Made by a program: the position numbers and the translations under genes. A model generated the notes under the pieces. The model did no database searches and was not told the DNA's origin. It worked only from the letters and a program-made list of their open reading frames with translations. From a virus (taxonomy: Duplodnaviria; Heunggongvirae; Uroviricota; Caudoviricetes), in the IMG/VR virus record IMGVR_UViG_3300034170_000024, positions 2,117 through 66,116 of that record: a DNA stretch of 64,000 nucleotides; one strand, 5' to 3'. Shown here piece by piece: positions 29,409-29,835 of the stretch (position 1 is the first letter of the stretch; every line of letters begins with the position of its first letter).

Positions 29409-29448
29409 TTTGGTGTCTCCATTTAAGATGTGGCCAATCCTACCAGAT

Positions 29449-29454
29449 GATTCG
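29449..29454 (-). promoter_or_regulatory. -35 TTGACA of candidate leftward promoter (with TAGGAT -10, 16-bp spacer)
   Basis: back-to-back with rightward promoter, about 20 bp apart. Confidence 0.3.
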
Positions 29455-29469
29455 CTGGTGTCAAGGGTC

Positions 29470-29498
29470 TTGACAGAAAAAGATTTCCTCTGTAGAAT
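29470..29498 (+). promoter_or_regulatory. rightward early promoter TTGACA-17-TAGAATGG
   Basis: perfect -35, TAGAAT -10 with GG extension shared by other promoters in this genome (33251, 39900). Confidence 0.6.
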
Positions 29499-29504
29499 GG
29501 GCAA

Positions 29505-29835
29505 CCTTGACGTGATGAACGTCTCGCACTGAGAGAGAAATGTCATAACCACTCACCGACTCAGTGTTAAAGGCAAGAAGAAAGCAGGCCAACATAACGT
29601 GGAAGTGATCCCTAACGGGAGCTGGTGCAGCGTTGCGGGTGTCGTCAATGACATTTGTGCACCACGGGAGAAAGGGGTTGACACCTTATCCTATCTCGTG
29701 TACCTTGTGTACATGCCTGATGAATCGGGGTGCTAGAATCGGTGAGCATGAAGATAACTCCTTGGTTTCCGTTTGTGAAACCCTTTAGGGGAAGTCTATC
29801 TGTACTATCTCAATGAGCATATTAGGAGAAGCTTT
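29505..29835 (+). ncRNA. long GC-rich structured 5' leader / candidate regulatory RNA
   Basis: about 330 nt without convincing ORF; GC clearly above genome average; hairpins CACTGAG(29527-33)/CTCAGTG(29560-66), GGTGCA(29624-29)/TGCACC(29658-63), GGTTTC(29764-69)/GAAACC(29777-82); internal TTGACA and TGCTAGAAT boxes. Confidence 0.35.

Follow-up and report, generated by a model that had tools for sequence, protein, structure and literature searches.

A conserved, pseudoknotted leader RNA directly downstream of back-to-back sigma-70-type promoters in a tailed phage and its relatives

The window, by which we mean the whole stretch of 64,000 nucleotides (nt) of tailed-phage DNA that was analysed (record IMGVR_UViG_3300034170_000024, positions 2,117 to 66,116), contains an intergenic region at 29409-29835, and the plus strand of this region from 29504 to 29820 encodes an RNA that belongs to a conserved family of folded, pseudoknotted RNAs of about 300 nt. 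The region is bounded on the left by the start codon (29408-06, minus strand) of a leftward open reading frame (ORF) of 62 amino acids, and on the right by the ATG at 29836 (plus strand) of a rightward ORF of 71 amino acids. The latter, which with its Shine-Dalgarno (SD) sequence AGGAGA (29824-29) occupies 29824..30051, is not conserved among relatives. Both the minimum of the cumulative GC skew and the switch in gene orientation coincide with this locus.

An earlier note on this DNA had proposed that two early operons diverge here from back-to-back promoters, and that the rightward transcript opens with a GC-rich, hairpin-rich leader of about 330 nt. A consensus scan recovered both promoters as sigma-70-type sites. 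The rightward promoter (29470..29498, plus strand, 11/12 consensus positions) consists of TTGACA at 29470-75, a 17-nt spacer and TAGAAT at 29493-98, exactly as the note had it. The leftward promoter (29437..29464, minus strand, 10/12 consensus positions) has its -35 box TTGACA at 29464-59, a 16-nt spacer, and a -10 box TAGGAT that ends at 29437 and has a TG upstream of it; from there a leader of about 25 nt runs to the 62-amino-acid ORF. The note had misplaced this -35 box (TGTCAA on the plus strand) by 10 nt, at 29449-54 instead of 29459-64, and therefore the two hexamers, described as about 20 base pairs (bp) apart, have only 5 bp between them. The number of promoter-like sites near the locus equals the shuffle expectation.

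Within 29500-29835 the scan found no further plus-strand promoter-like site and no terminator-like site, and the count of terminator-like sites in the wider interval 28800-30400 was 0. A transcript is thus expected that would start at about 29503-05, inside the conserved GGGCAAC, and would carry about 332 nt ahead of the start codon. These 332 nt are free of ORFs, no conserved small ORF was found there in relatives, and no promoter lies just upstream of 29836 from which a shorter transcript could begin, all of which upholds the proposal of a long leader. The compositional claim was equally sound, in that the G+C content of 29500-29799 is 0.50-0.51 versus 0.34-0.43 in both flanks.

Sensitive blastn of 29300-29950 against phage genomes gave matches inside the leader only, with phiPMW (74% identity over 183 nt, E = 1e-17) and vB_PpS_SYP (SYP). 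In both phages the matching sequence is syntenic with that in the window, lying between a leftward block that ends in a superfamily-I helicase gene and a rightward block, which in SYP contains a band-7 gene; the layout of the window is alike. Nucleotide identity in the element is higher than in the flanking genes. The window phage is new, and the closest genome to it is that of SYP, with about 76% identity over the polymerase and helicase genes.

A search with the invariant loop AGAGANATGTCNNNNNCACTCACCG returned 16 viral contigs and 6 true metagenomic copies of the element; loose DNA patterns gave mostly chance matches and were filtered with nhmmer. Scanning 185,579 bacterial and archaeal genomes produced a single match, judged from its sequence to be due to chance. 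The copy in phage MAG1, one of these viral contigs, matches 150 phage records, all of them Pseudomonas phages. Carriers in Pakpunavirus include JG004, PAK_P1, PAK_P2, K8, C11 and MAG1 among others, together with PAK_P4, which was checked separately; the remaining named carriers are Otagovirus phages (REC1, 16Q, Psxphi15), the Flaumdravirus KIL4, and the unclassified phages UAVern and Kremar.

The setting of the element is as constant as its sequence. The element always lies directly downstream of the rightward promoter of a back-to-back sigma-70 pair, without a terminator of its own and followed by variable genes. The TGTCAA..TTGACA arrangement precedes it in every relative, and the distance from the rightward promoter to P1, its first conserved stem-loop, is preserved in all homologues: in group C/D, a set of relatives outside the window's lineage that is used below, P1 begins within a few nt of the predicted start, and in the window the distance from the start to P0 and P1 is no more than 25 nt. 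The first downstream ORFs vary among relatives and include a 71-amino-acid coiled-coil-like protein, a protein with a GRGSKWGNP motif, a Cys-rich protein and others. Phage REC1 contains two diverged paralogues of the RNA (L245 515-892 and L237 1437-1750; record positions ~48914-49290 and ~83470-83790). A separate back-to-back promoter pair precedes each of them, and one is located on the PhoH side, the other on the RNA-ligase side.

Taken by itself, the window sequence provides no support for the claim that the leader is unusually rich in hairpins. The minimum free energy (MFE) of 29505-29835 is -92.3 kcal/mol versus -94.1 +/- 5.4 in shuffles (z = +0.33), and the argument from the single sequence therefore fails. 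The comparison with relatives restores the claim in another form, since all three hairpins that the note had named proved to be conserved helices with compensatory changes. Structures drawn by hand were scored on two MAFFT alignments, A1, comprising group C/D plus SYP (14 sequences), and A2, comprising the window's group (8 sequences, the window included). As controls, the 3' partners were moved by 1-3 columns (slid control), or the columns were shuffled (n=500).

For the 69 pairs scored in A1, 88.7% of cells held standard pairs versus 37-43% in the slid control, and 39 pairs had changed on both sides versus 6-11; none of the 500 column shuffles reached the observed values. For the 71 pairs in A2 the corresponding figures were 88.8% versus 36-50%, and 30 pairs versus 6-10, with the column shuffles reaching the observed value in 0/500 cases on four of five measures and in 55/500 for further pair types. 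When sequences are related, shuffling makes results look more significant than they are, but the slid control is free of that flaw and is equally clear. At paired positions there were 119 G.U pairs versus 42 A.C pairs, an excess that identifies the plus strand as the folding strand.

Covariance models were also built, from group C/D only. The model of the 5' domain (covariance model R1, not to be confused with the repeat word R1 below) matched the window at 29524-29613 with 36 bits and E = 4e-8, and it matched SYP (E = 2e-17), phiPMW (3e-7) and every other group A copy (E <= 6e-6). It found no second copy in the window. A match of this model to PAK_P3 (E = 1e-3) was discarded, as it lies inside a coding sequence and aligns poorly. 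The model of the long 3' hairpin (covariance model R2) gave weak matches, at the right place, to L231, L003 and L228 (E = 0.08-0.5), and left the window unmatched, so that the argument for homology of the long hairpin between the groups is an architectural one, from the shared layout of repeat, hairpin and repeat. Given these data, the leader is almost certainly a real functional RNA.

The whole element, which extends from the inferred transcription start to the end of the repeat word R2 (29504..29820, plus strand) and encloses the phiPMW and SYP blastn matches, comprises 12-13 helices. Its 5' end carries an optional hairpin, P0 (29509..29523), in which GACGU pairs with ACGUC around the loop GAUGA; it is part of the MFE structure of the window. 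By eye P0 covaries, with GAAGC/GCUUC in L004, GACGU/ACGUC in L224, CUGUUG/CAACAG in phiPMW and GACAG/CUGUC in SYP, and it is absent from L003, L005, L230 and all group C/D members. The stem-loop P1 (29527..29566) follows. Its stem, formed by 29527-33 with 29560-66, is the CACTGAG/CTCAGTG hairpin of the earlier note, and closes a conserved 26-nt loop; all 7 of its 7 pairs covary in A1, where they are 100% paired, and they are 98% paired in A2. The loop contains an inner GAG/CUC helix (29535-37/29552-54), an SD-like purine run, the invariant AUGUC, and the invariant CACUCACCG (29550-58). The AUG at 29540-42 reads AUG-UCA-UAA in the window, that is, a start, one codon and a stop, and the portion of P1 that holds the SD-like run and AUGUC (29531-29548) may be a ribosome-binding decoy or standby site.

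In the family fold a purine-rich linker lies between P1 and an H-type pseudoknot domain (29595..29663), which is made up of helix a, an inserted hairpin, helix b and P3. Helix a (29595-600/29630-35) is 100% paired in A2, with 3 covarying pairs, and 98.5% paired in A1. Helix b (29624-29/29658-63), which corresponds to the GGTGCA/TGCACC hairpin of the earlier note and shows compensatory changes, has 4 covarying pairs in A2 and is 100% paired in A1. The two helices cannot nest, and as both are supported they define a pseudoknot that encloses a hairpin. The inserted hairpin pairs 29609-12 with 29617-20; P3 (29640-44/29649-53, 95% paired in A2 with 4 covarying pairs) is capped by a GNRA-like tetraloop. 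The loop of the enclosed hairpin is a GNRA tetraloop in nearly all members (GCAA, GAAA, GUAA, GUGA, GCGA) and UCAA in the window.

Downstream of the pseudoknot are the hairpins P4, P5 and P6 (29666..29729), which in A2 are 98%, 88% and 78% paired, with 2, 2 and 4 covarying pairs, respectively. P4 pairs 29666-69 and 29672-75 with 29684-87 and 29689-92, P5 pairs 29698-703 with 29709-14, and P6 pairs 29716-20 with 29725-29. The next hairpin, GUGCU/AGCAU (29730..29749), contains the repeat word R1 and has weak support (72% paired in A2). The loops of P4 and of this R1 hairpin hold, respectively, the TTGACA (29678-83) and TAGAAT (29734-39) that the earlier note had taken for internal promoter-like boxes. 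Both hexamers are present, but they are 50 nt apart, the scan did not call them, and they are not conserved, the relatives having TTGCTA, TTGACG, TAGCTA and similar in their place. The segment UCGGUGAG in the loop of the R1 hairpin (29739-46) is complementary over 8 bp to CUCACCGA in the P1 loop (29552-59), and the MFE structure uses this pairing. A 7-bp core of it is kept in the six sequences of the window's sub-lineage and not in phiPMW or L003, and it may be a lineage-specific loop-loop contact.

The RNA ends in a long irregular hairpin (29752..29801), formed by 29752-56/29797-801, 29758-62/29787-91 and 29764-69/29777-82, for which A2 gave 100%, 92% and 84% pairing and 2, 0 and 4 covarying pairs, respectively. 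The innermost of these helices, the GGTTTC/GAAACC hairpin of the earlier note, is thus the tip of a larger conserved structure, and the group C/D counterpart of the long hairpin is supported in A1. In both the MFE and the consensus structures the SD sequence beyond the element is largely free, and no convincing helix that would sequester it was found.

The long hairpin is flanked by direct repeats. In the window the word TGAGCAT occurs at 29743-49 (R1, within the R1 hairpin) and as an exact copy at 29814..29820 (R2), 71 nt downstream of R1 and 3 nt before the SD sequence. The 3' end is built in this way in every member of the family: an exact direct repeat, 7-13 nt long and with a spacing of 68-116 nt, brackets a long irregular hairpin. 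The repeat was at the equivalent two positions in 23 of the 23 members examined. The word itself differs between lineages: it is CCATTGAGCATAT in phiPMW, ATCTGCATA in Pakpunavirus, AGCGTCATGAGA in Kremar, AGTGTCATGAGA in L220 and in REC1 copy a, ACTTACGAGAA in 16Q, and ATTCTGGATAG in REC1 copy b. The 7-mer of the window is not significant alone (129/300 shuffles), the longer words of the relatives are (0-12/300), and all occupy homologous positions. Between lineages the two copies change in step, as where a C has become a U in both (Kremar vs L220), and each word is confined to its two sites within its own locus.

We considered several explanations for the identity of R1 and R2. No consistent complement of at least 5 nt to either was found within the RNA, and the available flanks, among them 52 kb of REC1, contained no reverse complement of the repeat words with up to 1 mismatch; a third partner pairing alternately with R1 and R2 was accordingly rejected. 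A genome-wide protein site was rejected as well, in that TGAGCAT occurs 9 times in the 64 kb, which is about the chance level, and the two REC1 copies use two words. From the latter fact it follows that the identity of R1 and R2 belongs to each RNA molecule and is not the site of one phage-wide factor. The proposal that the words are copies of the 5' strand of P1 fits L003 only, and not group D.

The end of R2 is also the end of the conserved block. Among Pakpunavirus variants conservation stops exactly after R2, which is the recombination junction, and either an ORF or a new sigma-70 promoter follows. In L222 and VIPPAEUMC01 an ORF with the GRGSKWGNP motif comes directly after R2, and in MAG1, EPA1 and EM (L165, L235, L247) a second sigma-70-type promoter, for example TTGACA-17-TAGAGT, lies between R2 and the first ORF. 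In the Kremar-type copies (L238 1790-1895, L240, L219) a spacer of about 70 nt, C/A-rich and G-poor (CAACAACAUACAACAACA...), comes after R2 and has the appearance of a rut site or of an Hfq/Crc-binding CA motif; past the spacer are a mini-ORF of two codons, AUG AAA UAA, which has a strong SD sequence, and then a Cys-rich ORF. In PAK_P3, of the sister genus Nankokuvirus, an AT-rich stretch at the syntenic site (84284-84419; L241 40285-40420) holds a perfect 10-bp GC hairpin with TATATAAT on both sides, and this may be a repeat-hairpin-repeat remnant, or chance in AT-rich DNA.

Public records label parts of the element as hypothetical ORFs, namely PMW_181 (L001 2814-3203), vBPpSSYP_113 (L002 2987-3232), EPA1_89A (L235 1226-1333) and 16Q_033c/034c (L240 1551-1998). 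Over 22 sequences, however, the stop-free stretches vary in strand, frame and position, the most conserved loop carries length differences of 4 and 11 nt among relatives, and the invariant AUG of the P1 loop begins ORFs whose length ranges from 2 codons, in the window, to about 30 in other members, and whose frames differ. These annotations are therefore probably spurious, and coding across the region was rejected for want of a frame-consistent ORF. The 13-nt "sRNA" feature annotated in YS35 (L234 1647-1659) is not meaningful. That the region does nothing, or encodes protein as annotated in relatives, we regard as having next to no chance of being right, given also that the paired columns covary and that nucleotide identity exceeds that of the flanking genes.

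Nor does the element belong to a known RNA family. The Rfam 15 covariance models gave no match in 29409-29835 even at E <= 10 and none in the whole window at gathering thresholds, and for the element in five relatives, searched at E <= 1, they gave only a chance match to SCARNA18 (E = 0.13); no tRNA or transfer-messenger RNA genes were found. Literature searches, including the transcriptome papers on PAK_P3, PAK_P4 and PaP1 without their supplementary tables, turned up no description of the element, which is a previously undescribed RNA family. Of the suggestion that this is a regulatory leader, what stands is that a functional structured RNA follows the rightward promoter. A classical attenuator is excluded by the absence of a terminator, and there is no conserved leader peptide either; a riboswitch of a known class finds no support in the Rfam result. 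The pseudoknot, the conservation across the family and the direct repeats that flank the 3' hairpin go beyond what the note had described.

The rightward region beyond the leader contains further plus-strand consensus promoters at 30474, 31390, 33228, 39878, 41417 and 44307. Those at 41417-41445 and 44307-44335, within the replication-gene region, are perfect 12/12 sigma-70 promoters (TTGACA-17-TATAAT), and there are many 11/12 sites besides; the window phage appears to lean heavily on the host RNA polymerase. A strong plus-strand terminator lies at 33185-33210, 3.4 kb downstream of the leader, and another at 37473. The first of these terminators is preceded by a 42-amino-acid ORF (MSKVFYEQANPQGTTQTAGHKAFKVAAPKSRKRGRGYIQVSQ, 33050-33178), which has about 80% nucleotide identity to the Otagovirus phages REC, M5.1 and PPSC2, whose genomes are otherwise very distant, and is followed by the consensus promoter at 33228-56.

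What the RNA does can be proposed with less assurance. The reading we favour, to which we would give a probability of roughly 0.4, is that it is a 5' leader module, independent of the gene behind it, which determines the fate of the transcript and may be processed into a separate RNA. That the module is independent of the gene is argued by the differing downstream ORFs, by the end of the conserved block at R2, and by the new promoter that some Pakpunaviruses have after R2. In bacteria, 5'-terminal stem-loops are well established as protecting RNAs against 5'-end-dependent decay. On this proposal, the host RNA polymerase would transcribe a self-contained leader module that would act at the level of RNA regardless of the gene that follows; its 5'-proximal stem-loops would guard the 5' end against 5'-end-dependent decay, some factor would bind to the pseudoknot domain, whose core with its invariant junctions looks like a binding pocket, and the cassette of R1, hairpin and R2 would form the border to the mRNA and a likely processing site. 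Cleavage at the cassette would part a stable leader RNA from the message, much as the RNase III site R0.3 does in the early leader of T7.

Several facts weigh against this proposal. The start site and any processing are predictions. The long hairpin of the window amounts to only some 16 bp, broken up by loops, a short length for an RNase III site, and a model of cis action and processing leaves the identity of R1 and R2 unexplained. The second promoter after R2 in some relatives would allow the first ORF to be expressed without the leader, which a free-standing RNA fits better than control in cis. At the syntenic site in the sister genus Nankokuvirus (PAK_P3) the promoter pair is present and the element is replaced by a simple GC hairpin. 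Finally, the record of PAK_P4, which was annotated with RNA-seq, leaves the 440-nt gap at the element blank. The early timing that the note had given the two operons is an assumption; in PAK_P4 the element precedes gp041, and the stated early region of that phage is gp080-gp124 (PMC5563952).

It is possible, if somewhat doubtful, that the leader is instead a free-standing noncoding RNA that is cut off or accumulates and acts in trans, in keeping with the small RNA or protein-binding decoy that the note had suggested. Its pseudoknot domain would titrate or redirect, in the course of takeover, some component of the host such as the ribosome, a ribonuclease, a defence protein or an RNA-binding protein. 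The strong conservation of unpaired junctions would fit such a role, as would a pseudoknot and GNRA loops, which are typical of tertiary-folded RNAs, the presence of two paralogues in REC1, the separate promoter that serves the downstream genes in MAG1, EPA1 and EM, and the confinement of the element to lytic phage genomes, the sole match in bacteria and archaea having been judged chance. On the other hand, there is neither a terminator nor a known processing signal, and by our own count GGA and SD-like motifs are at chance level, with no binding motif enriched; an element that has its own promoter and no intrinsic terminator before the ORF does not qualify as the gene of a terminated trans-acting small RNA. 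We think it unlikely, though worth setting out, that the element represents a new class of tertiary-folded RNA in which the 5' pseudoknot would be a catalytic or factor-hijacking core and the 3' cassette a unit of RNA excision or processing, cut at the same position in R1 and R2 so as to release or circularise a hairpin RNA of about 100 nt, with the flanks rejoined or separated. If true, this model would explain why the words are identical within one RNA copy yet free to differ between copies.

A riboswitch-like sensor, in which the pseudoknot would bind a small molecule and the 3' half would serve as expression platform, would suit the position in a 5' leader, the compact pseudoknotted core with its invariant junction nucleotides, and the adjacency of R2 to the SD sequence in many members. 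It is nonetheless quite improbable: no Rfam aptamer matched, there is no terminator and no convincing SD-sequestering helix, the 3' half is conserved rather than free to vary, the downstream genes are mutually unrelated and share no ligand-coherent function, and in some relatives a promoter bypasses the element altogether. Processive antitermination in cis of the type known from HK022 put, where the nascent RNA modifies its own polymerase and so permits read-through of downstream terminators, could draw on the strong host-type promoter immediately upstream, on the terminators at 33185-33210 and 37473, and on REC1, where one copy per divergent transcription unit recalls putL and putR. Given the many further consensus promoters of the rightward region, however, one long read-through transcript is not needed; the element has four times the size of put and a far more complex build, and the leftward unit has no counterpart of it, so that we hold this explanation to be distinctly improbable. 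We give very little credence to a pre-primer RNA of a replication origin, like ColE1 RNA II or the R-loop origins of T4. In its favour are the position of the element, at the orientation switch and the skew minimum and upstream of the replication genes, and the fact that a strong promoter gives rise to a structured transcript there, but gene orientation explains the skew minimum equally well, REC1 carries two copies, and there is no adjacent AT-rich unwinding element and there are no iterons.

Whichever of these functions applies, complex RNAs with pseudoknots and conserved junctions almost always bind or catalyse something, and new classes of about 300 nt are rare. More than 150 of the lytic Pseudomonas phages sequenced have the element, and their genomes currently leave the region blank or label it "hypothetical protein", and the Pakpunavirus group among them (PAK_P1, PAK_P2, PAK_P4, JG004, MAG1 and others) is widely used in phage-therapy work. 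The carrier phages rely on the host RNA polymerase, and a conserved RNA fused to a promoter is a direct handle on the timing and stability of transcripts. The private repeats around the 3' hairpin, which evolve in concert, may point to an undescribed mechanism of RNA processing.

Among known systems, the early leader of T7 invites comparison with the gene-independent leader module that we favour. As Dunn and Studier and Steitz and Bryan reportedly described it, that leader is gene-free and several hundred nt long, with strong promoters for the host polymerase and the RNase III site R0.3. The two leaders are further alike in that each includes a site resembling a ribosome-binding site, at which the start is abortive, and that a long irregular hairpin separates each from the first gene; in the window this is the hairpin at 29752-29801, which is conserved with covariation. 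They differ in that there is no sequence relationship, in that cleavage of the element is a prediction, and in features peculiar to the element, namely its pseudoknot, the hairpin with a GNRA cap, the invariant junctions and the private direct repeats around the long hairpin. The putL and putR sites of HK022 are likewise structured RNAs located in cis immediately after host-type promoters; each transcription unit has a single copy, an arrangement to which the two copies of REC1 may be compared. A put site, however, is about 70 nt with two stem-loops, versus about 300 nt, 12-13 helices and a pseudoknot in the element, and with the many downstream promoters of the window read-through is not obviously required.

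The c4 immunity RNAs of P1 and P7 and the CI RNA of P4 resemble the element in being small RNAs embedded in a leader, with flanking direct repeats that differ between related phages and with the downstream repeat close to the first ribosome-binding site. Complementarity to the repeats is a feature of the central RNA in those phages, whereas the element has no complement to R1 or R2 in the RNA or its flanks; moreover, the element does not match the Rfam C4 model, and the phages here are lytic. With riboswitch leaders it shares the position in the 5' untranslated region and a compact, pseudoknotted, highly conserved core, but not a known aptamer, a recognisable expression platform or a set of related downstream genes. 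GOLLD, ROOL, HEARO and similar RNAs are, like the element, large phage RNAs of complex fold to which no function has been assigned, and copy a of both Kremar and KIL4 lies near a tRNA cluster, within about 1 kb of it. The element differs from those RNAs in its smaller size, in showing no similarity to their Rfam models, and in that it invariably comes joined to a promoter, with same-strand genes after it.

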